Source: Proteromonas lacertae (lineage: Eukaryota). From it: 64,000 bases of DNA. Location of the stretch: the NCBI GenBank assembly GCA_002245135.1, contig NGBS01000322.1, positions 1 to 64,000 of the forward strand. Reading direction: 5' to 3'. Both the position numbers and the translations under genes were made by a program. The notes beneath the pieces were generated by a model. The model had not been told where the DNA came from. It saw only the letters and a list, made by a program, of their open reading frames with translations, and did not search any database. Position 1 is the stretch's first letter; each line of letters opens with the position of its first letter. Below are positions 8,959 through 46,393 of the stretch, in pieces.

Positions 8959-10853
8959 ATAATACTAAGAAAGTAAAATTCAAAACAATTTATGAGAATT
9001 TTAGTGATTTAGATGACATTATTATCGAAAAATACTTACTTCAAAAGAATTATTTTCCATATGAACATATGACATCTCTTGAAGCTTTTGAAGAAAATTT
9101 CAAAGATCTTACTATGGATGATTTTAAGTCTAAATTGAATGATAATGAAACTATTAAACCTGAAGAATTTGATTTTGCTATGGAAGTAAATCAAATATTT
9201 GGATTTGATAATATACGTGAATACAATTTATTTTACTTGAAAATTGATGTTTATATTCTTCAGTCTATATTTAATGATTTTAGAGATAATATATTTGATA
9301 CTTTTCACATAGATCCTTGTTGGTATATTTCATTACCAAGCTTATCACTTGATTTATTCTTACATGTATCTGATGTGGAACTTAAATTATTTTGTGAACC
9401 TGAATACTATGATTTTATATTGAATGGTTTATACGGAGGATTATCATATATTGGTAAGCGTAAGGAAGATGCAAATAACAAATTTATGAAAAATTATGAT
9501 GAAACTTTACCTAGTAAATTCTTATTATATCAAGACTACAATTCTTTATACCCTTCAGTTATGGCTTCTTGTAAAATGCCTTTAGATGACTTTGAATTTA
9601 TTGATCCAAATTCTATTACATTAGAAAGTATACTTGATTTGCCATATTATGAAGAAATGGATCAAGATAGATTGGAGAATAATGATTTTGGTTATATATT
9701 GGAAGTTGATATCGAATTACCTATAGAACTACAAGACAAGTTTAAAGAATACCCATTACTACCTGAAAGGAAGAAAATACCTAAAGAATGGTTATCTGAT
9801 ATACAAACTGAAAGAGCTGAAAATCTTGGTATTATACATAAAGAAAGAGGTACTTACCATGCTACTGAGAAATTAATAACTGATTTGCATCCTAAAGAAA
9901 AATATATAATACACTACCAAAATTTGAAGTTTGCAGTTGAACATGGCTATAAAGTGGGTAAAGTGTACAGAATAATGAGATTTACTGAAGGTCTATATAT
10001 GGGTAAATATATTAATACTATGGTACAAAAAAGAGTCCAAGCTAAAGAAAACAATCAAAATACTACTGCAGACTATATAAAGAAATTAATGAATAGTTTA
10101 TACGGTAAATTTATGAAACGTGTTGAAAAGAGAAGTAACATATCTTTAATTACTAATGAAGACCAAATGATTAATGCTGCAAGTGATCCATGGTTTAAAG
10201 ACTTTATCATTATTGAAGGTGATTTAAGAATTGCACATTTTCATAAGAAGCTATATGAAATTAATAAACCTATACAAATTGGAATGGTTATCTTAGCATT
10301 ATCTAAACTCAAAATGCAAAAATATTGGTATGATGTATTGGATAAAAAATATGGTTCTGATAAGCTAACACTATGTATGACTGATACTGATAGTTTACTT
10401 TTCTCAGTTGAAACTAATGATATTTTTAAAGACTTAGAGGATCCTATCTTTAATAATTGGATTGATGGAAGTAATTTGAAAAATCCCTATTTAGAAAATT
10501 ATAAGTTGGATATACATAGAGCTGTTCATCCAGGTACACTAAATCGATTAAAATTTGAAGAACAGGATAAGAATAATAAAAACCTATATATTATAACAAA
10601 GTTTATAGGATTAAAATCAAAGTGCTATATATACGAAAAGGAGAAAGTGAATGATGATTCTGATAATAATACTAATACTGACAATCGTTGTAAAGGTATT
10701 AATGTGAAAGTTTCTAGAAAAATAACTTATGATATATACAATGATTTTGTTGAAGGTGCTACAAAAAGTCAAAAATATGAAGTATGTCAAATCAAATCAA
10801 TACATCATAATGTTTATACAACAGTGCAAAACAAAACTGGCTTAACCTATTAC
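8959..10853 (+). pseudogene. Protein-primed family B DNA polymerase, C-terminal half, from a paralogous element copy
   Basis: ExoIII YLKIDV; motif A YQDYNSLYPSVM; motif B KKLMNSLYGK; motif C MTDTDSL; KSKCY; cut at KTGLTYY before the expected DDKR-type motif by GC-richer DNA. Confidence 0.93.
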
Positions 10854-10917
10854 CGAAGGAGTCTTCTTAAGGCACATTACTAGAGCAAGATCCATCGATA
10901 AGAACAACTACAATGAG

Positions 10918-12548
10918 ATGGAGCAGGAGTACTTACTTACCCGTCACTATCAACTCAAGATTATCTCCGAGAGAATGGATCTCTTCATTAACAGCACCTG
11001 TAAGCTCCAAGGAAGTGATCTTCTAAGACCAGCCTTAAGAAACATCCAAGAACGCCTTGAAGATATACAACACTTTGTGAAGGACTCCAAGATCAAGGAG
11101 GATAATACCAACTACTTCATCCTCACATCTAAGTTCATCGATAAGGTCATCACTTCCCTAAGACAACTTAGTAAAGCTGCTAATCACCTGGCTGTTGAAC
11201 TAAAGACTTATGAGAAGATGCTTCAACACGATCATCCGATGCTCTTCAATGACAAGACAATCTCCCTGGATGCATACCTTAAGGCAACTAACTACTTGAT
11301 CAACTACACCGATGAAGTTATTCAGATCTTGGATTCGGAGAAGCTGTATCTTCCTAAGAATCAAATGCTGAAGGTGTTTAAGAAGCTCTATCAATCTCAT
11401 GAGCATTACGTTCTTAAGGATTCTGCTTACTTCCTTAAGTGCAAGAGTCAATCCTGGAGCTACGTGAAAGTAGAGAATCGACCTAGTACAAGACCAGACT
11501 CCGAGAAGGTACTTGTCTTTGACGAGGACAACTTACTTCATGCACCCACAGCTGTTACTTACACACAAATGAAGTTAGTCAAGGAGATGATGGATAACGC
11601 ATCCCAACGCTACGTAGACTTCAACAAGGAGATGATCACCTGGTTGAAATATTACGGTATTGACTTCCAGGATCTTCCAGTTACTTCATTGAGTCTCAAC
11701 TTTAAGGATTCCATGTAGGAGTAAAAAGGCATCACTGGTAATGAGTCCATGGAGGAGGAGGACAATGATGATGGTAATATCGATGGTAAGCAGGAGGATT
11801 CATCTTGAGTAAGGAACTTATAAATCCGCAACCTCAACAATCTCATGAACGTCCCGACATCTTTAGCAGTGACAACGATACCGATAATGAAGATAATGAT
11901 AAGGCCAGTAAGGAAGTTAAAGTAACTCCCGTAAATGTCAATGAAGAGAATGTTCCTAAGCTAGTTGACGAATTGCTAGAGCAACCACCTCCACTACCTC
12001 CTAAGCCTGTAATTACCAAGACCGATGATAAACCTACCATTACGAAGAAGAAGAAGACTCCTAAGCAATCTACTGCTGGTAATCTTCCAAAGCCTTCATC
12101 AGCAAGATCAAATTCACGATCTAAGGAACCATCAAAGGAACCATCAAAGGAACCATCAAAGGAACCATCAAAGGAACCATCAAAGGAACCATCAAAGGAA
12201 CCATCAAAGGAACCATCAATGGAGCCTTCAAAGGAACCTTCAAAGGAACCTTTAACAATACCAGTAATCACCAGTGATGATCTTGAGAAGCAAACAGCAG
12301 CTTCCTATCTTGTTAAGAATAGCCATGAGGATGTCAAGGACTCTGATGATGATGATGATGATGCTGATGAACTTAACTTAGCTTTCACGGGACCAAAGTT
12401 ACCTTCAATGATAAGTCCAACTCCACAAGAGACTAACTCCTTGGAAGGCACCGAGATAAACAATACTTCACAGAACACCAGCTGTTTACCAGTCTTAGAA
12501 GAAGAACCGTATATGAACTCACCTATACCTGACTTTAACATGTTTTAA
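10918..12548 (+). pseudogene. Hypothetical protein of GC-richer element with SKEP repeat tail
   Basis: ORF 10918..11718 reads on past TAG 11716 and TAA 11722 through acidic sequence, then frameshifts (~11805) into ORF 11805..12548. Confidence 0.55.
12121..12251 (+). repeat. 12-bp coding tandem repeat (AAGGAACCATCA), ~11 units, encoding SKEP
   Basis: Directly visible perfect and degenerate units. Confidence 0.95.
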
Positions 12549-12761
12549 CTTAAGGCTTCTTTTGTTATTGAATATCATTCTTGTTGCTGTGGGGTTGTAC
12601 AGATACTGTTACATAAATCTTATCGGAACATCGTCTATTGATGATAGCCATCACACGATCGCCTGTGGGCTGTTGAATGATGGTTATCATCAGTCAGTGT
12701 TATCCTTGCTTGTGAATCTCCCGATAGAACAACTAACTACGATAACATTAAAGGACTTACT

Positions 12762-13121
12762 TTAAGTTTCTCATATACACCTTGCAGATCCTTCTGAGTC
12801 TAGCAGCTTCATTGACTTCGCCTTTACCTTTACGGGATGTTTTCTTCCTGTTGATCACGTTCTTAATCCAGTCCTTGACTTTCCATAAGCTACTTCTTCC
12901 TCCGATATTAACAACTCTAAGTCATCCTCAGAAGCAGAGCTTAAGCTTCTTGCACGATAACCATTCCTTCCTTTAGGCATCTTCAAGGAGTCCTTGAATT
13001 TACCTAGTACTTGTTGCTTGCGCTTCTGTAACTGGTCGTACTCATAATTGATCGGAGGCATCGTAGCGTAGATATTCCTGGGCAATGAGTAAGCTGGCAA
13101 TCTCCTTTGATACCTTGACAT
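12762..13121 (-). pseudogene. Small basic protein of GC-richer element, frameshifted
   Basis: ORF 12855..13121 with an alternative-frame continuation SSLWKVKDWIKNVINRKKTSRKGKGEVNEAARLRR. Confidence 0.4.
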
Positions 13122-13173
13122 TGAACTTCTTTTGTTTATCCCAACAATTGCAATTAGGAATCAACTCAATAGC

Positions 13174-13842
13174 TTACTTATCATCCTCATCTAACATACC
13201 CAGCTTCATGCACTTTACCGTGATATCCTTCACATCATCTATTCCCAAGGAGATGTTTATTGTGTTGTACTTATCTAGGTTCATCTTATCGGTAAAGTCA
13301 AAGGTCCATTGCCTTATGAAGATGCGGACGATTCTCTCTCCGGGATGTGCAAGGCCATAAATCTTCCTACGATCAGTCATGGGATTGTACTTCACTAGGA
13401 AGCAATTGTCCTTAAAGAGATATTCACCTGATCCTCTAAGCACATCCTCAGCTTCATGATCATCATCTCCGATAATTCTGAAGAGTCTCTTGAGTACCTC
13501 CCGATTACTATCCACGATCTTGAGCTTAGCGTAACATTGATGATACATTGGAAGGGTGATCTTCTTATCGTCTGGGTCAGGGATGAACTTAGCGATGCAA
13601 TCTATGATCACTGGTTTCTCGGGAGTGATGGTAAGTCTTCGATAGCTATGTCCTTGCTGATGATACTCTGAGTAGATGCTAGCCTGACCGTATAGCTCTG
13701 ATTCCTTTACAGTTGCCTCGTAAGTATAGATTCTCATTACCATCTTTGAAAGCCCTTTCATCATGAACTCATCCTTACGATCGTCTTCATAATTCTCGGT
13801 GATCTCCTTGATGAGATTGAAGTAGCTTCTGTTCTTATTCAT
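13174..13842 (-). CDS. Hypothetical protein, tandem paralog 1
   Basis: Intact ORF; clear similarity to 13910..14515 (YFNLI..TENY, IGD..H.AEDVLRG, WTF.F.D, GI.DV.DIT..C). Confidence 0.7.
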   Translation of the reverse strand: MNKNRSYFNLIKEITENYEDDRKDEFMMKGLSKMVMRIYTYEATVKESELYGQASIYSEYHQQGHSYRRLTITPEKPVIIDCIAKFIPDPDDKKITLPMYHQCYAKLKIVDSNREVLKRLFRIIGDDDHEAEDVLRGSGEYLFKDNCFLVKYNPMTDRRKIYGLAHPGERIVRIFIRQWTFDFTDKMNLDKYNTINISLGIDDVKDITVKCMKLGMLDEDDK

Positions 13843-13909
13843 CGATCAAGTATAGGAATAAGTTTATTGAACTGAATCAACCCCGAGATTACCATTCCTC
13901 TGAGAACTA

Positions 13910-14515
13910 TCACTCCTGGAGGATTGAATTCCATGATGGATAGATGAGATCATTACTTGGTATTTTTTTGAACTCCTTCCTTGCAGCTATGCATCTATCG
14001 GTGATGTCCTCCACATCGTTGATACCAACAACGACTTCTAAGGTGTGGTACTTGGAGTAGTCCTTTGAGTCAATAAAGTTAAAGGTCCATCTAGGGAGTC
14101 TTAAACGAAAGATCCTCTTACCAAGACTTGCTAGGTGTTGAAACTTACTAATTGTTTTAGCAGCCCGTAGCTGACATTGCAACTGTACATAATCAGTTCC
14201 TCGGGAATTGCTTACTATTATCGTTCCTCTTAGAACATCCTCAGCATTGTGTTTGTTATCTCCGATCACTTCGAAGAGCTTCCTTAAGGTCTGATGATTC
14301 CTTAGTCTTAGAATGCCTATATCCATAAAGCTTTTTATCATAGCATCCCCGTAAGTGTCAGAGTCTTCTACTCGTATCTTATAAGTGAAGAGCTTCTCAA
14401 TCTTCTCCTGTCTGGTTGTCTTCTTCGGGAAGGTCAATTCCTCCTTACGTTCCTGATCGTAGTTCTCGGTGACTTGACGGATCAGGTTGAAATAGTTCTC
14501 ATTCATTGACTTCAT
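13910..14515 (-). CDS. Hypothetical protein, tandem paralog 2
   Basis: Open ORF paralogous to 13174..13842. Confidence 0.7.
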   Translation of the reverse strand: MKSMNENYFNLIRQVTENYDQERKEELTFPKKTTRQEKIEKLFTYKIRVEDSDTYGDAMIKSFMDIGILRLRNHQTLRKLFEVIGDNKHNAEDVLRGTIIVSNSRGTDYVQLQCQLRAAKTISKFQHLASLGKRIFRLRLPRWTFNFIDSKDYSKYHTLEVVVGINDVEDITDRCIAARKEFKKIPSNDLIYPSWNSILQE

Positions 14516-14674
14516 CGGATGAGAATTATCGGACTGCCCTCAACTCACTTTTGTTAATTAAGTCTTGACGTTTCCCAGAATTGACATTTTTACTCACTCC
14601 TGGTAATCACGCAATTCCCGGTCATCTCCATGAAGATAAGGATTCCTCCGAAGAATGAACTTAGAGTAATTGCA

Positions 14675-15150
14675 ATGTTATTCTTACTCCCAATTACTCT
14701 TGTAATGATTGCTTATTGTAAATTCAATTTATTATCATCATATTTAACTGTAAATATATCTAATAATAGTGATAATGATAATATACAGCTTCATAGTCAG
14801 ATTAATATATCTACAATACCATCATATATAAAATCACAATATAAATCTCTTAAATTAAATCTTCATGAATATGATAATCCTTTGAATTACAGTAAAATAG
14901 AATATTTAAGTCGAAATGCATTTCTATACAGATTGTGTGAAGATACTTACATAAAGATAGATATTGATGAAGAATCAGATGCATGGTTGAGAAAACCAAT
15001 TGCCTATATAATTGGTGATTCTTATTGTATGCAATGGATGGGAGTGGTTAAGAAATATTGCAGTGAAAGAAATATCACTTTAATATATACACAAATATTA
15101 ATGAAAGATTTCTTAAAGAATAAAGCAAAAGAGTTTTTGAAGGATGTAAT
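14675..15150 (+). pseudogene. AT-rich host-like gene fragment (N-terminal TM anchor, IIGDS motif)
   Basis: Abrupt composition change on both sides; hydrophobic LFLLPITLVMIAY then YIIGDS, reminiscent of SGNH/GDSL-type block I. Confidence 0.35.
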
Positions 15151-15152
15151 CT

Positions 15153-15896
15153 TTGAAAGTAATAGCAACCCTTGGAATTCTTAAGCCTAAAGAATCACTT
15201 ACTTTAGTTCACCAGGAAGTGTTATCTCAAGAGTCTTCATCGCCATTATCAATTCGTTGTGGTTCAGATACTGGTTCAGATACTCCTTCAAGAACATCAT
15301 CGTCTCTGACTTTACCGAGTGATGATAAGGACTCCATCGTTTATCAAGAATGTTACCTCGAAGTTCCCTTTACAGCAGTACCAAAGGCTTTCATCAATCT
15401 AAGCATAGATGGGAACGTAAAGGGTTTTGTTTGTTGTGGCAGCTCCTTCTACATCGCTTTATTAGCTTCACTTCATCGCGAGGAGATCAAAGGTATTCAC
15501 AAGAACGCTCTTGCAAGATTCCTATGGTTCAAAGCGTTCTCGTACTACCTACGGCTAAGTGAATGCATCTCCAATCCCTTACTATGCGATAAGTCGATTA
15601 CCAAGATAGAGGAGGACAATCATCTATCCATTAACGTATTCAAGATGCTTCAGAAGCCAGATATTCACTTAGTCCCTTTACGTACTTCGAAGACACCTTC
15701 CAATGATTCCTATAAGCAGGTGAGCTTGCTTTACCTGGAAGAGAATTGTAAGCCTTCAACATCTCCTAGTACGGATACTCCCAATGATGAATCTCTTAGA
15801 GGCTCTACAATCATCCATTTCCATTACGTTACCATCGTTGATCCGTCTATGAGCTTATCAGCCCAAGACAAGAGAAGTAATAGAATCACCATGTAA
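15153..15896 (+). pseudogene. Diverged vOTU-like domain homologous to the pPolB N-terminal region (GC-richer family)
   Basis: SFYIALLASLH / SITKIEEDNHLSINVF / VPLRTSK / VSLLYL / HYVTI align with CFKWSVLCSLY / SIDKFETKNRLNVNIF / LPIHLSK / VNLLLI / HYVTI of ORF 5420. Confidence 0.7.
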
Positions 15897-15897
15897 G

Positions 15898-16465
15898 TTA
15901 GAAGAAGAAGTCTGGCCTTTGACGTCTATTGATCATGCGTGTGATAATCCTACTCCATTGATCTATCAACTCCGACAATTCGTTAAGGATCTTGCTTATT
16001 GAATCTAGTCTTTGTTGGGCGTAGTCAACGATATAGATATACCTTGTAGCTACCTTAGTGCTGCTTACCGTGGTGACTTCATTGTCTTGTTCACTCCTAG
16101 GCCTTGAAGGTTGTTGACATCTCCTTACTTCCTCTTGAGATAGTCTACTCCTTCCTACGTGTTCCTCCAATTCCTTCTTACGACCACGTCTCCTTACCGA
16201 GAAGATTGCTAGGTAATTGATCTCCTTATGAAGCTGCTGATCCATCTTCTTGAAATCAACCTTACCAAGGATCGGTAAGTTGCTAGTTACCTCCTCATCG
16301 TCGAAGTCTTCTAGGTATTGACTCATCATGGACTTATCGATATAAGCAAGTTCCTCAGCGATGGCACTTAGGACATAGTACAATTGACTTAGCTGAATTT
16401 TGTTAGTCTTCACCTTTCCTATAACTTCAAATGATCTCCTTGTCTTCTCAGTTGAGAACATTCCA
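15898..16465 (-). pseudogene. 3' fragment of a hypothetical gene of the GC-richer element, fused in frame to truncated PolB
   Basis: Codon usage and composition switch at ~16465; no PolB motifs after FRNNC. Confidence 0.55.
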
Positions 16466-19400
16466 TCACAGTTATTCCTAAAGTGATCGAATACACTAGA
16501 TAATGTAAGAACATCAATTGCTAAATAAAACATATTGTAATCCATCAAGTTTTTACATTTCAATAGAGTCCAGAGAGCTTGAGATGATTCATAATCATAA
16601 TCAGAAATACCTTCATTCTGTTTTAATTGAGACTTAAAATCTTCTTTTCTAGGTAATTTATCAGTAAGGTATAACTTTTGAATACTATCTACGTATTCGT
16701 AGGGGAAATGACCTTTCTGTAAACCCCACTTAGCTATAAAATCATCTACTGTCCAGTTTCTCTCTTTTAAACAATCATTTATCTCTTTTGTTTGTGTTAC
16801 ATATTGATAAACTGGTTTAAAGAGTACTTTATGATTAGCATGTGCATCAGCTTCGACTTTCAATGACTTTACTAATGAATCTAATGATGCTGGCATAAAT
16901 TGACAACTATCTATAAAGTGTAACTTCATGAACTTGATAAGTAAAAACTTATTATCAGTTTTTAACAATACAGATAGTTTTGAATGATATTTCTTCTTTC
17001 TTGGTGTTGGTTGTTGTTGTTGTTCAGTTGTTGTTGAATTAAGTTGCGAAACAATAATATTTCCCATCTCTTCTTCTAATCCAATATCTTCTGCTGTTCT
17101 TGGTGATATGTAATGATCTCTACTATGTAACATATAATACAACTCATTAAATGCTTCTTCATTTGCTGGATCATTTTCATCAACTATTTCAATTGCATTT
17201 GGTGGTATTTCTGGTAATGGCAAATCAGAATCAGTATCTTCTTCTGTTTCTGCATCTTCTTCATCATTATCAACTGTTTTTGCTACTTGTTCTTGTTTCT
17301 TTTCTTCTTCAATACCTCTATTGTATTCAGCTAATCTATCAGCAATTGGTTCAGGTTCAGGCTCAGGTTCAGGTATTGGTAATTGTATAATTTCATTATC
17401 TTCTTCTTCATCATCATCATCATCATTTGGAATAGGAATATTATTATCATTGTACCATTTTGCTTCCATTTCTTTATCCAACTTTGATAATCCACGTATT
17501 ATAAAGTTATTGTCATAGTTTTTACTGTTGTGTGCCAAACATGGTATAGGCATATGTTGTAAACTACAATGCCAATTACAGTTTGAATATAAGGTTGCAA
17601 TATACTTACCAGTAAAATGGTCATGGTGCCTTGTACGCCTTCTATTTCTGTCGTTTTCATTGAAGGGTGTATTGCACCACATACATTTATCGATATTTTT
17701 ATGAGCTGGAATATAAGTGCTTTCATCTAATGGTTTCAATTCACCACTTTTATAATCTTCATACTTCTTCAATACATAATCTTGAATCTCAACAAACTTC
17801 TTTACTAGTTGCATCTCCAAATCTTGTGGATCTTGCTGCAATTCCAGTTTTCCGAAGAATGTTTCTTCGCTGATGATTTCAGGGTACCTGGAACTTAAGT
17901 GAATGCACCAACTGCTGAGGATATGTTTTTTAAACGCTCCTTTGGCTCCAGGTATTACTTCAGAAGGATCTATTGGTACTTGTATAACTTCTGTATCCCA
18001 GTATAATACTACAGGAATCATTTGTTGGTATTTGAAATTATGAAACTTGATGAAAGTATCTGGAGGTGGAAATTGACGAATAATTCCTTTTTGTAATTGA
18101 CAATTCTCTTTCTGATGTTGAATTATCATATCAGCTGTTGATAAAGTACAGAAACAATACTGGCATCTGGTATAATAATTATGATACCTTTTACCAGAAG
18201 GTGATAGGAAGGCTTCTAACTTTGTTATTACCATATAATGATCTTTGTATATTAACAAGTTCACATGAGGCCAGTGTTTTCTTTTATCTATGTTGGTAAC
18301 GTATAAAGGTATTGGTTCATTCTGGTCTATTGTAAATATATTGATAGTAATATGATTCAGCTGTTCAAACTCATCAATTCTGTTGCTATCATTAATTGCA
18401 TCTACTGGAAACCTTAAACTACTTACATCCATTAAATCTACATACTGTTTGTATTTCATTGCTCTGTTACGGTGGTCTTTGAACTCTACATAGTGTAAAC
18501 CGGCTGCCACGCTAAATAAAAAGCACATATTCTTACATTCTTCACTATATCTTACTAAATTAATAACGCACTTTCTATTGTTGAGGCTTGCTGGTAACTT
18601 TATGTTGTCATCTTCTGTAGATGATCCAGCAGCCATTGAACTTTTCATCAGTATCATCTCTACTTTCTTAATATATCTGAACTTTAGTTCAGATCTTTCA
18701 GTGTTGAAAATTGAACCTAAATCTCGAATCATGGCATTGTTTAACTTTGAACCAATTGTACCTAACTCTTGAGAAGTTATGATTTCTGGCGCTGTTTCGA
18801 ATGTTTTGTAACAACTTACTTGTGCATTGGCTGGTTCATCGGATCCTATATAACCTACTCTGAATCTGAAATAAACTTTTATATAAGAAAATTTCTTCTC
18901 ATTTATGTAGTTACGTATGGTAACCATAAAATCACTTGATGCATTGCAGATTTGGGTAAACAAATCCTCAGGTTTCTTTCCATCTTCTTCATTTATAATC
19001 TTCTCGTAGGTACGTTCGTAGTCTCTACTACTTCTCTCTACAAGTTGTAACAAACTAACTCTTTCAGGATGTGACATTGTTTTCAACTGCCCTGGATGAT
19101 TATCAACAACATCCAGAGCAATCATTTCTTCCTGTAGCTGCCTTCTTCTTTCAACATCTGTAGTTGATTGAGGATGTATTTCAGGAATTGGTCCATCATT
19201 AATTGGTGAAAGTGTTGGTGGATCTTCAGGAGGAGGTGTATCTGGCAATAAATCATCTGGGATTTCTGATAATCGTTGTATTTTTGGAGGTGGAGGAGGT
19301 GGCTGATCAATTACAATTGAAGATGTTGTTCTTCTTCTTGGTGTTATGAAACTAGTTTCATTAGTACTTCTAGTAGTGTTTGATTGTTGTTGTTGTTGCT

Positions 19401-33981: not shown

Positions 33982-34543
33982 AACGTAGAAACCCCGTAGT
34001 TTCTACGATCTAGCAGTCTCATTTTTCCCGGACAATTGTTGAGCATTGGAACACTTTACCTAGTTAAATTATAAGGTCATTGTAACTTACCTCTAGGAAG
34101 CTCCCGAGATTGCTAATCATTATCTTTAAGGGCCCTTGAGAAATCCACAACTAGCTAGAACCTCCCGGAGTTACCATTTGGTAACTTGTTAACAATTGTT
34201 AACTTGTTACCAATTGGTAACAAGTTAACAATTGTAAACTCCCTGTTCCACGATTGGTTTCCACGGTTCAATTAAAAGCCCTTACAAGGTCACCAGCGTA
34301 GCAAGGAGAGTCAAGAGCGTGATTAGAATCATCACCTCGAGGTAACCAACACTTCTAGATAGCTTCCAGGAGTAACCGTAGGGAAGAAGACCCTGTTGAG
34401 AAGTAGACCCTGTTAGGAGGAATCCCGTAGGAACCTTACGTAAATGGGACTCTGTGACATTGTCACAGAGTTCTAACGAGTGTTCTAGGGGTCTGTCCCC
34501 TTCTAGATTCAGAGTTGACCTTTACGGGAGCTTCATCGATGCA
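33982..34543 (-). repeat. Terminal inverted repeat of GC-richer element (~560 bp)
   Basis: 33982-34463 is a near-identical reverse complement of 39176-39605; outer part matches 27196-27308. Confidence 0.93.
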
Positions 34544-36820: not shown

Positions 36821-36856
36821 TTAATTTCTTTTTAATCTATTATTTCTTTGCTTAAT

Positions 36857-38284
36857 ATGTCTTTATCTATTCCTAAAGAACAAAAACATGGTGTAGAGAC
36901 ACCTGTTATGCTTCCTTTTTATCAGTATGTAAAATTAAGTCCAGTTGGTTCAGCAAGTGATTGGACTATAAATGGAGATACATATACTCAAGAAAAAAAG
37001 TTTGAATTAAGCGGAGATAACATTATTAACTTGTCTAAGTCTTACATTCAGTATGATCTTGTTATTAGAACTACGCCAATTAAAAGTAGTGTAACAGGAT
37101 GGACTGGTGATAAAACTAGTGATAAAGATAGTTATCCTAATTTTATTAAAGGATTAAAAGATGGTTTTGGTATTGCTTCATTCAGAATATGCAATCAGAC
37201 AGGTACAGATTTAGTTAGAGTTGATGATAGTTATGAACCATATCGTATATTTATGGATGAAATTGTTCGTAAGACACCAGATCAGTATTATCAAGCAAAT
37301 TATTATGATGGCATACAGTTAAAATGGAATAATAATGTAAAAGATAAAGTTGTTCAAGATGAAGCTGAGTTTGTAATACCATATAATAAAAATATTAAAA
37401 TAGCAGATTCTGACAATAGTCATTATACATATGATAATGAGCCAGAATTTAGATTACATGTTAAAATACCTTTAGGAAGATTTTATAATACATTTGCTGC
37501 AATGAAAAGCGATGTATTCTTTGCAGAACGTATGTATATATGTATTAAATTCCAAACTATTGATAAATTTGGTCCATTTAAATCTTATGCTCTTAAAGGT
37601 GCTTATAAAACAGCTGACGATACTTTAGATAATGCATGTACTTTTAGCACACCAGAAGTTGTTGAAAATAACATAAAAATAGAAAATATGAGATTTTATG
37701 CATATTATAATAAGGATAGTCAATTCAATAACAATACTAAAAACTATTGTTTATCTAAACCAATACAATTCAATGATTTTAGATGTCATCAAGTTTCTTA
37801 TAGTTCTCCTAATGGAATATTCAATTATAGTTTTACATTGAATAGTTCTAATGGACCATTTTAAAGATTTATTATTTATAGACCATGGGATGAAGACGAT
37901 AGTAAATGGTTACGTATACCAGAAAATGCACAATTTAGATGGATGATAAACGACTTTGTTCATTAACCAGATTATGCTTTAATGCAATATTATGATAGTT
38001 ATATGATGGTACAAGATTATTTTAAAGACTCTTGGTATGATGTTTTCAGACAAGATAAAAGTTTCAATGAGAAATTTTTTGAAATTTTAAACTTTGGTTC
38101 AAGAGATTTAGATAATATTAAGAATCAAGCAGGTAGACCTTTAGCTGCTGATTTAAAAATTACTTTTGGAATTAGTTGTCCTGGAGATCTAGCATTTATA
38201 ACACATAGAATATATCATAAATTTTATATTATTACAGGTAGATTATGTACTATTAATGGAAGTGGTATTGTTAGTGTTGTTTAA
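36857..38284 (+). pseudogene. Major capsid protein-like, AT-rich family
   Basis: FELSGDNIINLSKSYI; single frame with TAA at 37862 and 37964; similar to 29783..31101 and 44350..44865. Confidence 0.75.
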
Positions 38285-38286
38285 AT

Positions 38287-39163: not shown

Positions 39164-39605
39164 TGGGACTATGGCACAATGTCACAGAGTCCCATTTACG
39201 TAAGGTTCCTACGGGATTCCTCCTAACAGGGTCTTCTTCCCTACGGTTACTCCTGGAAGCTATCTAGAAGCGTTGGTTACCTCGAGGTGATGATTCTAAT
39301 CACGCTCTTGACTCTCCTTGCTACGCTGGTGACCTTGTAAGGGCTTTTAATTGAACCGTGGAAACCAATCGTGGAACAGGGAGTTTACAATTGTTAAAAA
39401 GTTACCAAAATGGTAACTCCGGGAGGTTCTAGCTAGTTGTGGATTTCTCAAGGGCCCTTAAAGATAATGATTAGCAATCTCGGGAGCTTCCTAGAGGTAA
39501 GTTACAATAACCTTATAATTCACCTAGGTAAAGTGTTCCAATGCTCAACAATTGTCCGGGAAAAATGAGACTGCTAGATCGTAGAAACTACGGGGGTTCT
39601 ACGTT
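39160..39605 (+). repeat. Terminal inverted repeat of GC-richer element starting with an 11-bp-stem imperfect palindrome
   Basis: TAAATGGGACT...AGTCCCATTTA at 39160-39198; remainder matches 33982-34463 inverted. Confidence 0.93.
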
Positions 39606-39693
39606 CTGAAGAGCATGGAGGATGCTGAGAAGTCAACACTCCGAGAACTCCATAGTCGTACTTTTCTTGGAATCGCTGATAAGTAAAATTACC

Positions 39694-40308
39694 ATGGCTA
39701 GCAATATAGATTCTAGTAGTTTTGCGAAGCTTTCCAGGGATGAGTTAGAAGCATTGATCATCAAGGTCGAGAAGGAACAACAAGAGCTGAAAGAGCATAA
39801 GGAGAAGGCAAAGGGTAAGGCTTCGGAAGTAACTTCAAGGAAGCGTAAGTTCAATGATAAGTACTACATCCGATGCATCGATCAGGAGTCAGCTAAGGAA
39901 TGTCTCGCGCTTACCAAGGAGATGGAGGAGTACTTCAAAGAGATCACAGGCATGACTGATGAGGAAGCTTTCGTGATCAACAGCCAGGAGGAAATAATGA
40001 AGGCTGTGAAGATAAAGTCCATCGCTGATTACCTATTGAAGTCCTTGACCTTACAAGTACAATTCAAGGAGTCAGAGGATCGCAGCAAGACCTCATTCCC
40101 GATACTACCTTACAACTACGAGGTATTCTTAACTAAACGCAACCAAGGAAAAGCACTCAGCAAGAGGATGAAACTCAAGATGGAAGCAGCTGTTCATGAC
40201 AACTTACCAAGAGAAGACAACTCCCTTGATAGTAAACCCTCGGAAGAAGCAACAACCCAACAAGACAATTTATCAGAAGCAGAAGATGACTTTAACGAGG
40301 CCTTCTAA
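39694..40308 (+). CDS. Hypothetical coiled-coil protein
   Basis: Intact ORF (probable start MASN). Confidence 0.6.
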   Translation: MASNIDSSSFAKLSRDELEALIIKVEKEQQELKEHKEKAKGKASEVTSRKRKFNDKYYIRCIDQESAKECLALTKEMEEYFKEITGMTDEEAFVINSQEEIMKAVKIKSIADYLLKSLTLQVQFKESEDRSKTSFPILPYNYEVFLTKRNQGKALSKRMKLKMEAAVHDNLPREDNSLDSKPSEEATTQQDNLSEAEDDFNEAF

Positions 40309-40878
40309 TTAACAGTACTCCAGGACATAGAAGCAAGGATGAACTAACACCTTAAGTAATGTTTTCTCTTGGCTCTGTTGGACTGTTTGCTTAAAACACT
40401 TCATAAGACTGACAGAGGATAGCAGGCACTTGAAGTAATGATAGGAAGAGTCCTTAGAAGTCTCTTGCTCAATGTCCTCCATAGGTTGATCAGGACTGGT
40501 AAGTAGCTCCATCATGTTGAAGTCAAAGGAATCGTAGGAGAGTACCTGATGATCATACTCAATAACCTCAAGTAGATCCAAGGACATTGTAAGCACATCC
40601 TTCAAGGAGTTGATAAAGGACTGATGAAACATCCCTGGCCATTGCACCGGCCTTACATTATTCAACTCAACCTTGATGAAGCCATCGGAAGATGATCGAT
40701 CAAAGGAGTAAACACTCCCGTAAACAACAAAGCTAAAGAACATATTCAAGGTGTTCACGGTCTTCTCCTCCATACTGTTGATGAACTTACAAGGATAGTT
40801 ATCTCGGAGAAGTGTAGCAAGGTGATCATCGTCAGGTAAAGGACTAGAGGAAGTGTCGGGAGATTGATTGCAGCTCAT
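40309..40878 (-). CDS. Hypothetical protein
   Basis: Intact ORF whose stop abuts the convergent stop at 40308. Confidence 0.6.
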   Translation of the reverse strand: MSCNQSPDTSSSPLPDDDHLATLLRDNYPCKFINSMEEKTVNTLNMFFSFVVYGSVYSFDRSSSDGFIKVELNNVRPVQWPGMFHQSFINSLKDVLTMSLDLLEVIEYDHQVLSYDSFDFNMMELLTSPDQPMEDIEQETSKDSSYHYFKCLLSSVSLMKCFKQTVQQSQEKTLLKVLVHPCFYVLEYC

Positions 40879-40948
40879 TACAATGCACGATAAAAATCAA
40901 GGACTAGAGAAGCTCAATCAATAATTTCCCAAGATAAAACATAAGGAC

Positions 40949-41357
40949 ATGGACACCAAAGTTATAAGCAATATTGTAATCCCTTCAGCTCACTTGCAAC
41001 CCAAAGAAGAAGAAGAAGACAAGACCGAGGATAACCATGAAGGAGATATTCAAGAAGTCGAAGACCAAGGAACTGCACACACTTTAACACCATTGACAGA
41101 GTCACAATCAAGTGAATTATCCATGGAAGTCAAGACTGAAGAAGTTAAACAACCAGAGTTAGAAAGAGACCGAAGTAGTCATCACTTACACGATGAACAA
41201 GACCTAGATGCTGAGCTTATTGAAGACATGACTGATAAAGAGATTACTAGCTTAGAAAACACCTTGAGGAACTTATCGAGGTAGTGAAGGAGTCTAAAGA
41301 TGAAGACAAGGATAAGGATGATAACAACGAGATCCAGGAAGTAAAAGACTCTGAGTA
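40949..41357 (+). pseudogene. Acidic hypothetical protein, frameshifted
   Basis: ORF 40949..41284 continues in another frame as LEELIEVVKESKDEDKDKDD. Confidence 0.5.
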
Positions 41358-41448
41358 AAGTGCTCATAAGGAGGTACTCATAAGGAGGAACTAATAAGGA
41401 GGAACTCGCAAGGAGGTTCTTACAGTATCTCTTTTCTCAGGAGTAATC

Positions 41449-41992
41449 ATGAACAAGTTCAAGAGATTCAACTTAGCTGATAGACGAAGAGTACTTATTA
41501 AAGGCAATGGAGTAGCCAAGGATGATTACAATGACCTTCATGAAGCTTACTTACAATCACTAGCAAGAGAACGTCAAAGAGCTATCTCCTGAAGAAGGAA
41601 TCGAAGGATAGATGAACTCCTAGGAATGCTCAGAGACTACAACACGGAACATCCGATGATGGGTAAGGATGCATAACTCCAAGGAGCTTGCAATGTAGCT
41701 AATGACTATCTTTCTGCCTTGGAAAACAATGAGTTGATGAGTCAAAGGATGGCAAGATCGTTGATCCCCAAGAAGACCAAGAGAAAGAACAAGAGAGTTG
41801 CTTACAGGGAATAAGTATGTTAATGATAGCAAGTATGAATATGGAGAAGAGAAGTCAGAAGATGAAGCTCCCGAGGATGACTCAGGTAATGAAAATGACT
41901 CCTTAGACAACTACTGAGACTATGATGAAAAGTTCGACGAGGAACTTAACAGTGCTATGAAGAAGAAGAAAGCTCTTAAAGCGATAACATAA
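41449..41992 (+). pseudogene. Basic/acidic putative core protein (not in ORF track)
   Basis: MNKFKRFNLADRRRVLIKGNGV...; in-frame TGA 41590, TAA 41674, frameshift ~41810, TGA 41915. Confidence 0.55.
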
Positions 41993-42038
41993 GCATGTCT
42001 ATCCCCAGTAATTCTTTTCCCTTAAGTATAGTCTTGTT

Positions 42039-42233
42039 ATGACTAAGAAACTCAACAAGAAGCAAAAGGCAAAGCTCAAGGAGCTGATCATCAAGAGATT
42101 GAAGCAATGTAAAGCAACTCCTAGCAGTCACTACTCTGACCTTTACAAGAAGTACTACCAGGCAATCATTGATCATTACAAGGATGTCGATATCAATGTC
42201 CATGGCAATGAAATAGACTCCTCCGATCTCTAG
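42039..42233 (+). CDS. Small basic protein
   Basis: 64-aa K-rich ORF in a co-oriented gene run. Confidence 0.5.
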   Translation: MTKKLNKKQKAKLKELIIKRLKQCKATPSSHYSDLYKKYYQAIIDHYKDVDINVHGNEIDSSDL

Positions 42234-42259
42234 TAATCCATTTCTCTCTAGTAAAGACG

Positions 42260-43282
42260 ATGAGAAGCAAGGCAAGTAGCAAGAGTCCCAAGAAGGTAAA
42301 GACAAGTGATGATCCTCTGGTGATCATCAAGAAGCAATTGTTGGAGGAGTTCAATAAGAAGGTTGAAGGTATCACCGATGTTAAGAAGCTCTCAGCAATG
42401 ACCGTGAAGATGATGGAGAACAACACCAAGGCAATGGAAGGTAACAATCAGCAGATAGTATCGATGAACTAAACCTCCGGCAATATACAATCAGGTACTA
42501 TGGTAAACAACTCCCCAGCAAGAGAACTTTACAAGGCCAAAATGATTAACCAGTACTGTAAAGCCAACTACTATAACTACCGAGACTTTGTTGGTAACAT
42601 CAACACTCCAGCTTCAGGGAATATCTCAGCACTCTATCCCAATCAATCAACTTACTATCGTAATCCATCGGTAAGTCTTCCTAGTTTACAGCAGCAGGCT
42701 AAACAAAATCAATGGATGAGCAATCCCCATCTAGTCTATCAACAGAACACTGCCCAGATCAACAACGTTCTTAGCAACTTACAATCAATGATCGAGAAGT
42801 GCAAGTACGCAGCTCCTGATCAGAAACCATTGATCAGGACAAGCATAATCAGCTTCATCGAGAACTTAAGGAACGCTACCAACACCGGAGCTACGAACAG
42901 TGATGTTACCAGAGCAGTCTTCAATTATATCAACAACCATGAGATCAAAGGCCTCTTGAACTTCTCCGATGAGATGATCAAGACTTCCTTTGGACCGACA
43001 ATGTACCAGAGCTTCATGGACGTCACCAACAACACGATCGAAGCAGTCGGAACCACTGCAGACTTCGGAAGGAACTTATTTAACCTCAGAGATGCTTACA
43101 ATAAAGGAACCTTATGGAGCAACCCACAACAAGTGATTGGAAATGCTGCTGGGTTAGTTCAGAACCTTGGCAACTTTGGAACATCCCTGGACAATGGCTT
43201 TCAAGCAGTCAAGAGACTCTTAGGATATGGCAAAGTAGGAAGAAGAATCCCCTTATGGAAGCTTTACCGAAGACGTAGGTAA
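42260..43282 (+). pseudogene. N/Q-rich putative virion core protein with one in-frame TAA
   Basis: ORFs 42260..42472 and 42500..43282 are in the same frame separated only by TAA 42470; amphipathic G-rich C-terminus, LLGYG and terminal RRRR. Confidence 0.6.
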
Positions 43283-43335
43283 GAGACTTATGGTAAATCG
43301 TTATTCAGTCTTTCTCTAAGTTCATTTACTCGGAC

Positions 43336-44298
43336 ATGTCCAACCAAACAATAACGATCAGCATTAGCTCAGCTAGAAGAATTGCCCAGAAGAATAAGTA
43401 CGAATTGATCATTGCTATCCCCACCGATGTAAGGAAGGACAACTACAAGTACATTGCCTTGAAGTATGCTAGCATTCCCAACTCCTTCTATGTTGTCCAA
43501 GAAGGAGTCAATGACCAGATGACCTATGTCTTTCAGATCGCTATCCGTACTGCAGGAGATAAGTATGAACACGTAGAGTTCAACTACAACATGACAATCC
43601 CTCAAGGAGACTATAGTGGTGATGAGCTCCTTGCGATGTTCAATAGTCCCTTTGAGAAACTCACTCAAGGAGAAGTTATCAAAGTGATAAAGACCGTCCA
43701 TCCAGAGTTAGAAGCAAGTAGTACCGGAAGCAACCTCCTTATGTTCGATCCATCAACAGCCTTTGATAAGAAGAAGTGCACGTCCTCTGATCCTCATCAT
43801 ATCCACACAACTAATTTAACCTTTACAGGAGCTAATAATGTCATCGGCCTTAAAGCAAACAACATCGCTGGTAATGAGTATACAGGAGCCTTCATCAGCT
43901 CTATCAAGTTAAAGTCTCCAGGGATTGCTTATCGATTCCTCGGGATGGGAGATACTCAATATGTCCTAGCTGATCATCAACACACTTCATCCGGTCTATT
44001 GACTTACAAGTATCCAGAAGTAACATTGCCTGGAGAGCCTACGATCATCTGGGTAGACTCTGTAAGCATCAGGATGGACATGGTGAACCAAGATCAAGAC
44101 TCCAAGATCCTAGAAACTTTCCCTATCGTGGACTTTACCCAGCCTTACATTGCCTTCAACAACAACGATCTCATCTCCCGAGCAAAGCAATTAGGTAACT
44201 ACACGGAAGGTCAAGTAATCGTTAGCATTACCCAACAAGATGGCTTCCAGCTAGAGCTCAAGATGCATGACTACAACTTCGAGGTAGCCTTATTCTAA
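43336..44298 (+). CDS. Minor capsid (penton-like) protein, GC-richer family
   Basis: Intact; IPNSFYVVQEGVND...IPQGDY; PTIIWV.S..IRMD.VN.DQDS shared with 35831 gene. Confidence 0.72.
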   Translation: MSNQTITISISSARRIAQKNKYELIIAIPTDVRKDNYKYIALKYASIPNSFYVVQEGVNDQMTYVFQIAIRTAGDKYEHVEFNYNMTIPQGDYSGDELLAMFNSPFEKLTQGEVIKVIKTVHPELEASSTGSNLLMFDPSTAFDKKKCTSSDPHHIHTTNLTFTGANNVIGLKANNIAGNEYTGAFISSIKLKSPGIAYRFLGMGDTQYVLADHQHTSSGLLTYKYPEVTLPGEPTIIWVDSVSIRMDMVNQDQDSKILETFPIVDFTQPYIAFNNNDLISRAKQLGNYTEGQVIVSITQQDGFQLELKMHDYNFEVALF

Positions 44299-44349
44299 GT
44301 TCCTTTCCATTGAATCATTTCCTTTGTGTATTCTAAGGAGTTATTAGCA

Positions 44350-44865
44350 ATGTCAACTCAAGTGATCATCCCCGAGGAGCAACAACATGCTCCTATCATC
44401 CCAATTATGAACCCACTCTACCAGACGATAAAGCTTACTCCTACTCAATCTTATCCTAAGGTCGACTGCCCAGAGCAAGGCATGACTCCTGAGATCACCT
44501 TTGAACTCCCTGGTAATTACTGCAGCAACTTAAGCAAGAGTTACATCCAGTTTTACGTTGACTATTATGGTAGCAATGGAAAGACTATGGAACCTGATAT
44601 TAAGAATGCTGATAAGTCAGGGGATTGGAAGTTCTTTTACGATACTTACGTGTTATCCAACTCTTATAACTTAACCGAGATCAAGGTCTACAACTCCAAT
44701 GGAGTTCAGTTACTGTATGCAGATCATCAGTATGAGTTGTTCCGACAAATGATGGTTCAAGTGGCAAGGAAGAACATTGATAAGTATAATCAGAAGGTTT
44801 ACTTTGATGGCTGTTATGCTGAGGAAAGCATATACACTGAGGACTATGAAGTCAAGGAGTTTAAA
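44350..44865 (+). pseudogene. Major capsid protein-like, paralog B, 3' truncated
   Basis: FELPGNYCSNLSKSYIQF; similarity to the other two MCP-like genes stops at ~44860. Confidence 0.72.
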
Positions 44866-45086
44866 GTAGAAAAATTAAAGGACTAGCATTACCGACATCT
44901 CGTAAAGATCTTCCTTGTGTCAGTGATCTGGTGAATCGTTCCTCGGAGTTGTACTTGCCATTGAAGTGTATAAGTAACACTTACAAAGATGTTATTATCG
45001 GTGCTATCCATAGACGAAAGAACCCAATATCAAAAGTAAATGATAAACAGTAAAGCCTTAAGAAGAAGTTAAGTACTAGGAATTAA
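44865..45086 (+). pseudogene. Probable C-terminal tip of a diverged pPolB
   Basis: RKIKGLALPTSRKDLPCVSDLV...CISNTYKDV...KNPISKVNDKQ aligns with RCKGINVKVSRKITYDIYNDFV...QIKSIHHNV...KTGLTYY of ORF 9069. Confidence 0.5.
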
Positions 45087-45911
45087 GCCGATGTTGAAGT
45101 CATTGAAATAGCTGCTGGTTGCTCAGGGTTCTGAGGAGGCTCTTGAGGCTGTTGTTGTTGTTGTTGAACTCCTTGAGGTGCAACTACTTGAGCAGGAGTA
45201 GTAGGAGTATGAATAACTCCTTGAGGAAGCATCCCTTGAGGGAACTGAGGTTGTGGAGGCTGATAAGCATTCATGGAGATGTCCTTGATCTCATAATGAG
45301 TCCTTGATCACTAGCAAGAACATGAAGACTTTACCGACATTGCTATAGATGTTCTGTTTAAAGGCCAAGAGCTTCTTGTTGCCTCTCTTCCAGAGAGTTG
45401 CATTGAGAGTACCTGATCGAGGAGTTGAAACATAGGTGGTGTTGGTGATCTGAAGATGCTTAGGGAAGTTTGGATCTTGTTGAGTTGCCATGGCCACGTT
45501 GTATCGTAAGCTCTTGATAAACATCTCGGTGTTGTTGGAGTCAATGAAGAAGGACATCACCCTGGTAACATTCAACTGGAGGTAGTAGTTGGTATCATAC
45601 TCGGAGATCTTTTCAACCATGGCTTCAACGTAGAAGGGTACTTGATCTTGCTTAAGGAAGTAGTGTAAGTACTTACCACAGATACGGAGCTGGGGCTTCT
45701 CAGGTTGTAATTGTCGTTGTTGTTGGGCAGCTCCGGGAAATGCAAAGGAATTTGAAGGAGCAGATGGAGACATCATCATCACTGGCTGAGATATCACGGG
45801 TTGATTCACCATTGGCAACACTGAAGCTGGATTGAAAGAAGGAGCTGTCATAGGAGCAGGCATTGCTGGGTAAGGAACTTGTTGCATAGCTGGTTGATTG
45901 AAACAGTTCAT
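45083..45911 (-). pseudogene. P/Q/M-rich hypothetical protein, frameshifted
   Basis: ORF 45291..45986 (probable start ATG 45911) joins ORF 45083..45274 by a frameshift at ~45300. Confidence 0.6.
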
Positions 45912-46393
45912 AGGAAACGATAAGTAGTGAAAGATAAGATCGACCAAGAAATATATGACTGAAGTAAACCTAAGATGAACCTTCAAAGGGATCGTAGAAC
46001 CATCCTAGTCTTTACAATTGGTTTCCACGGTTCTGTAGATGAACTTTTCTTTGGAAGAGTTCTTCTAGTAGAATACTCCTTGAAGATCATCCTGTAAGAG
46101 TTCTTCTTTAATTAGATTATCCATATATGAAATTAGAACCTTTATTTACTATTATTATAAAATTCAATTCATAATCACCACTATTAATACATTCGATTAA
46201 CTCTGGAACAGCTTTATCAACCACTTTAGTACCAGTGTGAAGCTCTTTCATCATTTAAAAATAAAAAAAGAAATACTTGAGTTTTATGATATGTATAGGA
46301 GTTAAGCATATCCTCATCATGAGAATTCTTTTTAATTTTTAGATTTTCATTTTACATAAAACTAAAACAATATAAACAAAAGAATTAATATTT

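Follow-up and report, generated by a model that had tools for sequence, protein, structure and literature searches.

The GC-richer blocks that interrupt AT-rich DNA in the window (the whole 64,000-nucleotide stretch of Proteromonas lacertae DNA analysed here) are the broken remains of integrated Polinton-like viruses (PLVs) and probably come from one genome type, cut up by later insertions and rearrangements. That they come from a decayed virus of a group already catalogued from this genome (Bellas et al., 2023; PMC10120064) can be held with high confidence, and we judge it fairly probable that blocks 1, 2, 4 and 5 represent one genome type with two capsid genes. The case for one family rests on a shared repeat, a common codon model, a 19-nt motif, reading frames that stay in register across an insert, and gene content that does not overlap. 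The two-capsid layout and a stand-alone, predicted-inactive OTU-type gene, both of them likely, appear to be undescribed. Features are listed in Table 1.

Table 1. Features of the GC-richer blocks and of neighbouring DNA, in window positions
Feature	Positions	Strand	Remarks
Block 1, two-state GC segmentation	10837-14650		41.0% GC
Block 1, genes	10853..14675		Five orphan ORFs, one with a 12-nt tandem repeat
19-nt intergenic motif (blocks 1, 4, 5)	12739..12757; 33270-33288; 40887-40905	+; -; +	
AT-rich insert between blocks 1 and 2	14675..15160		25% GC
OTU-fold ORF	15150..15896	+	Homologous to N-terminal vOTU domain of pPolB
Block 2, two-state GC segmentation	15165-16471		41.4% GC
Orphan GC-block gene, 3' part	15898..16471	-	In-frame fusion at 16471
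Block 3	27190..27605	+	Putative terminus, diverged sister subfamily; lacks any 100-aa ORF
Block 4, two-state GC segmentation	28656-34542		41.8% GC
A32-type packaging ATPase	28768..29556	-	Frameshift near its start
Major capsid protein (MCP) 1	29783..31101	-	Internal deletion, premature stop, frameshift
Gly-rich protein with C-terminal Ulp1/adenain-type cysteine protease	31201..32472	-	
rve-like integrase homologue	33282..33869	-	N-terminally truncated
Terminal inverted repeat, block 4 copy	33982..34543	+	Outer end ~34543
AT-family penton-like and MCP genes (comparator)	35831..38284	+	Between the two repeats
Block 5, two-state GC segmentation	39165-46094		41.9% GC
Second repeat copy, block 5	39168..39605	-	Without outer ~70 nt; imperfect fold-back at end
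Block 5 orphans	39622..43282		Several with in-frame stops
Minor capsid protein (penton), likely	43336..44298	+	
MCP 2	44350..44886	+	N-terminal ~150 codons only
Right edge of block 5, with Gln/Pro-rich orphan	45083..46110	-	

Composition and extent of the blocks

The GC-richer blocks have 39–42% GC against 27% in the AT-rich genome (27.0% is the reported value for P. lacertae), and the stretches that separate them have 25–32% by two-state segmentation. Block 3 (27196–27605) was missed by this segmentation, yet has 39% GC. With each block left out of its own model, the GC-block codon model takes all 20 ORF segments of blocks 1, 2, 4 and 5 and none of 21 AT-family or host ORFs, and GC3s values are 0.31–0.59 in the former and 0.06–0.25 in the latter. 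The five GC-richer blocks described in the initial annotation are confirmed, block 3 by its own GC content and the others by segmentation and, for their common codon style, by the left-out codon test. The blocks overlap in nothing but the repeat and the two MCPs, and their summed length of 18.4 kb falls inside the usual size of such elements (15–30 kb). About 16 ORFs have no convincing family match, in agreement with the annotated "over a dozen" orphans; two weak PHROGs matches among 22 ORFs were discarded, and an excess of 12-mers common to the blocks was discounted as evidence, being mostly codon-style or low-complexity words. Besides the GC content reported for P. lacertae, the window's very small introns of GT-AG type and its genes of the Ras family and with SHIPPO repeats point to Proteromonas as the likely host.

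The view that these elements have not yet ameliorated to host composition fits their GC content but supplies no date: composition gives no element age, because the hallmark genes are already interrupted by stops and frameshifts and because virus-intrinsic GC classes are known from Cafeteria virophages (PMC8547959).

Terminal repeats and the order of the pieces

The near-identical inverted repeat of ~0.45 kb, flanked by different genes in its two copies, is corroborated by alignment: 33982–34471 and 39168–39605 differ at 6 of 429 aligned columns (98.6% identical) and by indels of 36 and 17 nt. The block 4 copy is palindrome-rich, with a perfect 44-nt palindrome (34192–34235) and a folding z-score of -6.1 (0/100 shuffles equally stable). 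Both outer ends point into the AT-rich 4.6 kb spacer between the copies, so the repeats bound no single element at this locus, and no element with terminal inverted repeats enclosing GC-rich DNA was found there. The lack of a repeat-bounded copy and the outward-facing repeats count against one genome type.

Block 3 begins with a diverged repeat terminus; an alignment of 124 nt with the outer end of the repeat in block 4 shows 73% identity. A 17-nt internal repeat sequence has an exact copy at 46017, at the right edge of block 5, and a scan with this word yielded six candidate loci (L081–L086). That an 883-bp inverted repeat forms the two ends of an element of 35 kb is unlikely, because a hAT dimerisation domain is encoded within it.

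Blocks 1 and 2 appear to have been a single piece, interrupted by the AT-rich insert, on either side of which the reading frames are in register. A near-identical 11-mer flanks the insert (10/11 matches; among 3000 random window pairs, 52 matched as well as this). Block 1 includes a paralogue pair (13174–13842 and 13910–14515, 30% identical); its ORFs gave no convincing family match, only a low-complexity PT repeat, and a search of the ESM Atlas with the paralogue returned nothing usable. All three matches to the 19-nt motif in the window lie inside GC blocks, and its core recurs at 44874–44884. The best match between block 1 and blocks 4/5 is 21/22, equalled by 1/200 Markov shuffles; the motif was picked after the data had been seen, and about 1 in 200 is the corrected figure.

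In the one-genome-type reading, block 4 would be the right end and block 5 the left end of the genome, with blocks 1 and 2 as a single internal piece; block 3 would then be the tip of an element from a sister subfamily. By the known biology of the group, the genome would have been linear, ~20 kb long and tipped by palindromic terminal repeats, and would have been inserted by its rve integrase, probably into the flagellate Proteromonas as host; its ATPase would package the DNA, and its protease would mature the double jelly-roll capsid that receives it.

A stricter version holds that blocks 1, 2, 4 and 5 are a single integrated copy in rotated order (internal, right end, left end), produced for example by end-to-end joining or tandem insertion and later split by AT-rich elements. 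The pieces are non-overlapping and sum to 18 kb, their order in the window is a rotation of left end, middle and right end, and the end blocks share one orientation. We nevertheless regard this as doubtful: the two repeats differ by six substitutions and two indels, no clear duplication was seen joining the right edge of block 5 to the left edge of block 1, and the genome has 285 MCP hits (see below), so neighbouring copies are to be expected. Polintons and Mavericks have a target-site duplication of 5–6 bp; among the blocks there is no element that has both ends in place.

Hallmark genes

The annotated ATPase and protease both stood up. The ATPase has A32-type motifs and 43 homologues at E<=0.001, the best 57% identical and many carrying PF04665. 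The protease matches PF02902 above the cut-off (E 1e-5), has His-Asp-Gln-Cys motifs, and is matched in 23/80 metagenomic loci. An integrase homologue is present as annotated, but it is truncated and lacks the region of the first catalytic Asp; it aligns with the AT-family integrase at 29% identity over 180 columns (E 5e-14), and the latter reaches rve only below the Pfam cut-off.

The minor capsid gene keeps its grade of likely on position and profile matches. The candidate matches a profile built from 10 ORFs that immediately precede the MCPs of metagenomic loci (E 2e-6), and that profile in turn matches PBCV-1 P1v1 (E 0.005); its own structure model (pLDDT 34) is unusable. The ORF at 42500–43282 ends in a basic tail and may encode a core protein. 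The gene order protease, penton, MCP, ATPase, as in the metagenomic relatives L069, L078 and L053 among others, is matched in part by block 4 and in part by block 5.

Capsid lineage and the number of viruses

Two MCP-like genes are indeed present, one in each of blocks 4 and 5, but the lineage is not undescribed, as had been proposed. Table S3 of Bellas et al., 2023 (PMC10120064) gives as the representative P. lacertae MCP an intact 450-aa ORF with a Foldseek match to the PBCV-1 capsid at E 4.9e-9. MCP 1 is near-identical to it: compared by eye with the published entry, the first 131 residues are the same and only a handful of substitutions follow. An intron origin of the break in MCP 1 was rejected, given that a single frame of 450 codons is open in the published copy. 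According to Table S4 of the same study, the 285 MCP hits in the Proteromonas genome all belong to one cluster and stand in one iterative-search column, with zeros in the columns of named virus groups; Dataset S1 lists five loci of the cluster. Membership is set at >=25% identity to members, which places MCP 1 inside; MCP 2 shares 33% identity with MCP 1 and 34% with the MCP of the AT family. From its identity to the published, modelled protein, MCP 1 is predicted to have the double jelly-roll fold.

Our tree groups the AT-family capsid with those of the GC blocks in one clade (support 100/100). The claimed distinctness from the co-resident AT-rich family stands for composition, and with the capsids in one clade the difference lies at subfamily level.

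The pairing of MCP 1 and MCP 2 as sisters has support of 81/69, and the alternatives (p-AU 0.36 and 0.31) are not rejected. This lack of firm support, together with their low identity, would suit two GC-richer viruses with one capsid gene each, of a block 4 type and a block 5 type. Their common terminal repeat would have been shared through recombination or common descent of ends, with blocks 1 and 2 coming from one of the two. Block 3 is evidence for more than one repeat subfamily, module exchange among co-resident subtypes has been described in Halocafeteria (10.64898/2026.07.28.741278), and one MCP each was seen in three metagenomic loci whose ORFs were surveyed, whereas blocks 4 and 5 each have their own, a point against one genome type. 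Two viruses are nonetheless unlikely, though better placed than the other alternatives: block 4 runs protease, MCP, ATPase without a penton gene while the sole penton lies in block 5, no gene besides the MCP is duplicated between these blocks, and PLVs with several distinct MCPs per genome are known (Trimcap group, PMC7805220).

The OTU-fold gene and the missing polymerase

The "PolB pieces" of the initial annotation shrink to an OTU-fold ORF homologous to the PolB N-terminus only, as no polymerase or exonuclease domain of PolB was matched in the five blocks. The long PolB ORF (15898–19647) extends into block 2 only by crossing a junction. Its match to PolB ends at the edge of the block; this part has a GC3s of 0.21 and is a truncated PolB from another family (33% GC), fused in frame at 16471 to the 3' part of the orphan gene. 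No replication gene was found in the pieces, which counts against the preferred explanation, and because the polymerase is absent from them the full Polinton core set once claimed is incomplete, although the pieces may fall short of the whole genome.

Among 494 window ORFs searched, the OTU-fold ORF was found by HMM at E 5.6e-7, and it matches the N-terminal domain of two PolBs in the window. It ends directly after the domain, head-on to a convergent ORF. In the alignment the His is kept and Ser stands where four PolB homologues have Cys; two Cys lie 3–4 residues upstream of the Ser column and could conceivably provide a shifted active site. A structural search with its model (pLDDT 62) returned OTU proteins in all of the top 20 rows (Z 5.1–7.1), the best with a middling Z of 7.1 (rmsd 4.0, 110 aligned), and Foldseek placed OTUD1 and OTUD3 on top at E 0.04, with none at E<=0.001. 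No protein reached E<=0.001 in an exhaustive HMMER search that used the OTU-like domain, a result that, the query being a single sequence, says nothing on whether the gene stands alone. The vOTU alignment gave nothing useful in a sequence search against solved structures, and no match came from the phage collection. Only lipid-transfer-type matches (<=0.90), judged to be chance, came from the ESM Atlas. Judged from the sequence, the ORF is likely a stand-alone OTU-type protease gene and is predicted to be inactive.

Taken together with the two capsids, these features could describe a polymerase-less, hairpin-ended PLV that keeps of its ancestral pPolB only a detached, catalytically dead vOTU domain and depends on a helper for DNA copying, a reading to which we give little credence. 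The helper would be the host, the AT-rich pPolB elements that reside alongside, or a giant virus from a different GC class.

It is improbable that assembly, by collapsing or mis-joining reads from many similar copies, accounts for part of the mosaic and of the broken frames. In favour of this, the region is rich in repeats, and Bellas et al. (PMC10120064) caution that assembly is often the source of stops in elements of this kind, and that these often vanish after correction. Against it, the breaks are of several kinds (substitution stops, palindrome-unit indels and deletions of tens of bases), nearby host ORFs of up to 952 codons are open, and a near-duplication flanks the block 1–2 insert.

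Comparison with known elements

The closest known system is the Proteromonas MCP cluster (PMC10120064), which has a capsid near-identical to MCP 1 and a reported PBCV-1-like capsid fold; the sections of that study drawn on here describe no GC split, second capsid, repeat structure or OTU-type ORF. With Polintons/Mavericks the blocks share a truncated rve-like integrase homologue adjoining the terminal repeat, an Ulp1/adenain protease, an A32 ATPase, a likely penton and an MCP, but the 18 kb of pieces lack the catalytic domains of pPolB and have a separate OTU-fold domain and two MCPs. The published clustering, as far as its tables cited here go, leaves the GC-block capsid outside the metazoan Maverick-Polinton group. 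The metagenomic PLVs (L001–L080) have ATPases ~29–38% identical and the same module order, with MCP-like ORFs matched in 15 loci, whereas a long branch sets their capsids apart from the clade of the window capsids. Protein scans of the viral contig collection with four queries (ATPase, MCP alignment, PolB, vOTU alignment) confirmed no relative.

Inactive vOTUs of adenovirids and bidnavirids remain fused to the polymerase, as stated in the part of the source cited (Krupovic et al., 2024; 10.1101/2024.03.18.585575); the window ORF shares the OTU fold and the His with the pPolB domain but is apparently separate and has Ser for Cys. Trimcap-group PLVs (PMC7805220), with more than one distinct MCP per genome, are comparable if blocks 4 and 5 belong to one genome type; they have three MCPs in a separate cluster, and the likeness is one of MCP number. 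Should two capsids, no polymerase and a stand-alone pseudo-OTU prove true, they would add a new step to the known splits and losses of pPolB domains and a candidate helper-dependent virus of an anaerobic gut protist.

Co-resident GC subtypes with matching codon use and many partial copies are also known from related stramenopile hosts, namely in the virophages of Cafeteria burkhardae (PMC8547959) and the PLVs and virophages of Halocafeteria seosinensis (10.64898/2026.07.28.741278). Those elements are GC-poorer than their hosts, whereas the Proteromonas GC blocks are ~15 points GC-richer, and the Halocafeteria PLV capsids cluster apart from the Proteromonas ones (10.64898/2026.07.28.741278). 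The overall importance is modest: what is published as one Proteromonas capsid cluster comprises at least two subfamilies ~15 GC points apart, a split that repeats the Cafeteria/Halocafeteria pattern with its sign reversed.

Composition and codon usage of the GC-richer blocks

Two-state segmentation of the window returned four long GC-richer blocks (41-42% GC against a background of ~27%). A codon model, built for each ORF segment from the other GC blocks, was preferred over AT-family and host models for all 20 ORF segments of blocks 1, 2, 4 and 5, and for 0 of the 21 other ORFs. The initial annotation, which described GC-richer blocks of common codon style within AT-rich DNA, was right for the most part. 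Its fifth block (block 3) stands in part: segmentation missed it, but it has 39% GC and its start is a diverged repeat end, matching the block 4 repeat at its outer tip (73% over 124 nt).

Coordinates of the GC-richer blocks and of their hallmark genes
Feature	Position	Basis or state
GC-richer block 1	10837-14650	two-state segmentation
GC-richer block 2	15165-16471	two-state segmentation
Block 3	27196-27605	initial annotation
GC-richer block 4	28656-34542	two-state segmentation
GC-richer block 5	39165-46094	two-state segmentation
ATPase (block 4)	28768-29556	43 homologues at E<=0.001, best 57% identical, many with PF04665
MCP 1 (capsid gene, block 4)	29783-31101	broken in three places
MCP 2 (capsid gene, block 5)	44350-44886	cut after ~150 codons

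Ends and arrangement of the blocks

Blocks 4 and 5 carry an inverted repeat (33982-34471 and 39168-39605) whose copies differ at 6 of 429 aligned columns and by two indels (36 and 17 nt). It is palindrome-rich (folding z -6.1), including one perfect 44-nt palindrome. GC-richer DNA runs inward from both repeats, while their outer ends face a 4.6 kb AT-rich spacer holding the penton-like and MCP genes of the co-resident AT-rich Polinton-like family (the AT family). Blocks 3 and 4 have a common, homologous end point, which appears to mark that side as the terminus. Because of this and of the spacer-facing outer ends, the two repeats would be a right end and a left end lying back to back; they are not the borders of one element here. 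At 39160-39200 the shortened repeat closes in an imperfect fold-back whose outer arm is similar to the block 3 repeat variant, possibly a template switch or the trace of a hairpin end. An internal 17-nt repeat word recurs without mismatch at the right edge of block 5 (46017-46033), oriented as in block 4; it may act as a promoter-type motif or be left over from another end.

A 490-nt AT-rich insert lies between blocks 1 and 2. Its flanks show a direct match at 10 of 11 positions, a level that 52 of 3000 randomly drawn window pairs attained, and the reading frames on its two sides are in register, so the blocks are probably one piece. A 19-nt motif, a pattern picked after the fact, is confined within the window to blocks 1, 4 and 5; the best match of block 1 to blocks 4/5 was equalled in 1 of 200 shuffles. 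The blocks, 18.4 kb in total, overlap one another only in the repeat and the MCP pair.

Virion and integration genes

The ATPase has a frameshift near its start. Block 4 also encodes a protease domain scoring above the Pfam C48 cut-off, and an integrase with 29% identity to that of the AT family, in which the first catalytic region is absent. The two capsid proteins are 33% identical. Position and profiles make a block 5 gene the likely penton (E 2e-6; E 0.005 to PBCV-1 P1v1, which we take to be a penton variant); its predicted-structure model was unusable. Searches for Pfam-type domains and PHROGs gave no convincing family match for ~16 further block ORFs. Three metagenomic loci with the ATPase family of block 4 (L069:1360-9280, L078:3916-10813 and L053:2052-7472) share the order large protease-bearing protein, penton-like, MCP, ATPase.

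Polymerase and the OTU-like ORF

The PolB pieces initially placed in the blocks fared less well: four PolB pieces from the window, used as queries, matched nothing of polymerase or exonuclease type in any of the five blocks. The resemblance of ORF 15898-19647 to a GC-block PolB is due solely to an in-frame fusion at 16471, which joins block 2 to a PolB from a different family (33% GC, GC3s 0.21). Encoded on the minus strand, this third PolB type shares 27-33% identity with its AT-family counterpart and carries long acidic and Pro-rich insertions. That the GC-richer subfamily lacks a polymerase altogether seems improbable.

What does survive is ORF 15150-15896, related to the PolB N-terminal domain (profile E 5.6e-7 among 494 ORFs searched; profile comparison E 1.1e-5). 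Its predicted model (pLDDT 62, built with five sequences) gave OTU domains in every one of the first 20 structural rows (best row: Z 7.1, rmsd 4.0, 110 residues), and the best viral rows include a MELD-virus PolB (E 0.013) and an adintovirus protein (E 0.068). As Foldseek returned no row at E 0.001 with this model and the Z values are middling, the case for the OTU fold depends on how consistent the rows are, together with sequence homology. The predicted domain corresponds to the vOTU domain of pPolBs, as far as its description could be consulted (Krupovic et al., 10.1101/2024.03.18.585575). In the alignment the His is retained and Ser occupies the Cys column; the ORF ends where the domain does, facing a convergent gene head-on, a layout that may be typical of the family or may stem from damage to this copy.

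Relation to the AT family and to published capsids

In a tree of 20 N-terminal capsid regions (150 columns, with 12 of the 15 MCP-like ORFs from metagenomes, the three below 380 aa being left out), both GC-block capsids, the AT-family capsid and five homologues from Logan formed one clade (100/100). Support was 98/95 for the AT type as a group and only 81/69 for the pair of GC-block capsids; an AU test on 19 rows, one long row removed, did not reject placing either GC-block capsid with the AT type (p-AU 0.36, 0.31). A quick tree of 43 ATPases, P0043 excluded, put the block 4 ATPase in a 17-row clade (support 100) of otherwise Logan-only proteins. The longest contigs of two of these equal those of AT-type capsids in size (4759 and 4779 nt), a hint that they belong to AT-type elements. 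Together the trees indicate that the GC-richer and AT-rich families are deep subfamilies of one host-associated group.

The lineage had been called undescribed; judged by its marker gene, that is incorrect. For Proteromonas lacertae, 285 MCP hits in a single cluster, an intact 450-aa ORF as modelled representative and five loci (Dataset S1) are reported in the parts consulted of Bellas et al. 2023 (PMC10120064). Compared by eye with the table sequence to near residue 400, MCP 1 reads identically over the first 131 residues and then differs by a handful of substitutions. For Proteromonas elements, the literature searched, in the parts available, describes neither GC classes nor two capsids nor an OTU-type ORF; the supplements of PMC10120064 may already show part of this anatomy. 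Within the same literature only the Halocafeteria preprint (10.64898/2026.07.28.741278) names both Proteromonas and PLVs (Polinton-like viruses) in its main text. The remaining interest is the anatomy of the subfamily, with its two capsids, no polymerase found, a putative detached pseudo-OTU gene and hairpin-rich ends. In the Trimcap group, single PLV genomes are known to encode several MCPs (PMC7805220, seen in part).

Proposed mechanism, decay and dating

With three hallmark genes disrupted or cut, and a truncated integrase, the virus pieces in the window are to all appearances dead. Polintons and PLVs have linear genomes with terminal repeats, insert by an rve integrase, package by an ATPase and mature a double jelly-roll capsid with a protease. 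By analogy, the GC-richer form would have been a linear ~20 kb genome with terminal repeats, inserted by its rve integrase and packageable by the ATPase into a double jelly-roll capsid matured by the protease. Around the pieces lie fragments of hAT elements and of the AT family, and the mosaic would be best accounted for by insertions and deletions that came later. Bellas et al. (PMC10120064, in the part consulted) caution that stop codons in elements of this sort frequently turn out to be assembly errors; the types of break seen here would argue against this. GC content does not date the insertion, since, in the portions seen of both reports, low- and mid-GC types with matching codon use occur side by side in Cafeteria (PMC8547959) and a GC offset from the host is usual in cryptophyte PLVs (PMC12220804).

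Host genes and other elements

On its host side the window contains tiny GT-AG introns together with genes for SHIPPO-repeat and Ras-family proteins, V-ATPase d and OST48, and we infer P. lacertae to be the host, whose genome is given as 27.0% GC in the part seen of PMC12129017. A host gene at 58899-61757 (+) encodes 952 aa in a single frame, with no Pfam match at E 0.05.

An 883-bp inverted repeat (3593-4475 and 38282-39163, 99.3% identical) codes for a hAT dimerisation domain; one copy forms an exact junction with the block 5 repeat, its other end abutting the AT-family MCP stop. The 5' part of a hAT transposase (DUF659; 7496-8958), with a 155-nt GC-rich tip bearing short repeats (8803-8957), lies between two overlapping PolB pieces that have 281 nt in common at 90% (7261-7541 and 8958-9223). 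A short repeated unit, perhaps the end of another mobile element, occurs in two AT-rich regions (429-540 and 20742-20834), each time beside small orphan ORFs. Two AT-rich P-loop NTPase-like ORFs at 22013-26425 (-), with weak ATPase_2 and nSTAND3 matches, may resemble Crinkler/RHS-type proteins. An inverted match of 50 nt (88%) links an NTPase-like ORF end (21971-22019) with a host membrane-protein exon (46407-46456).
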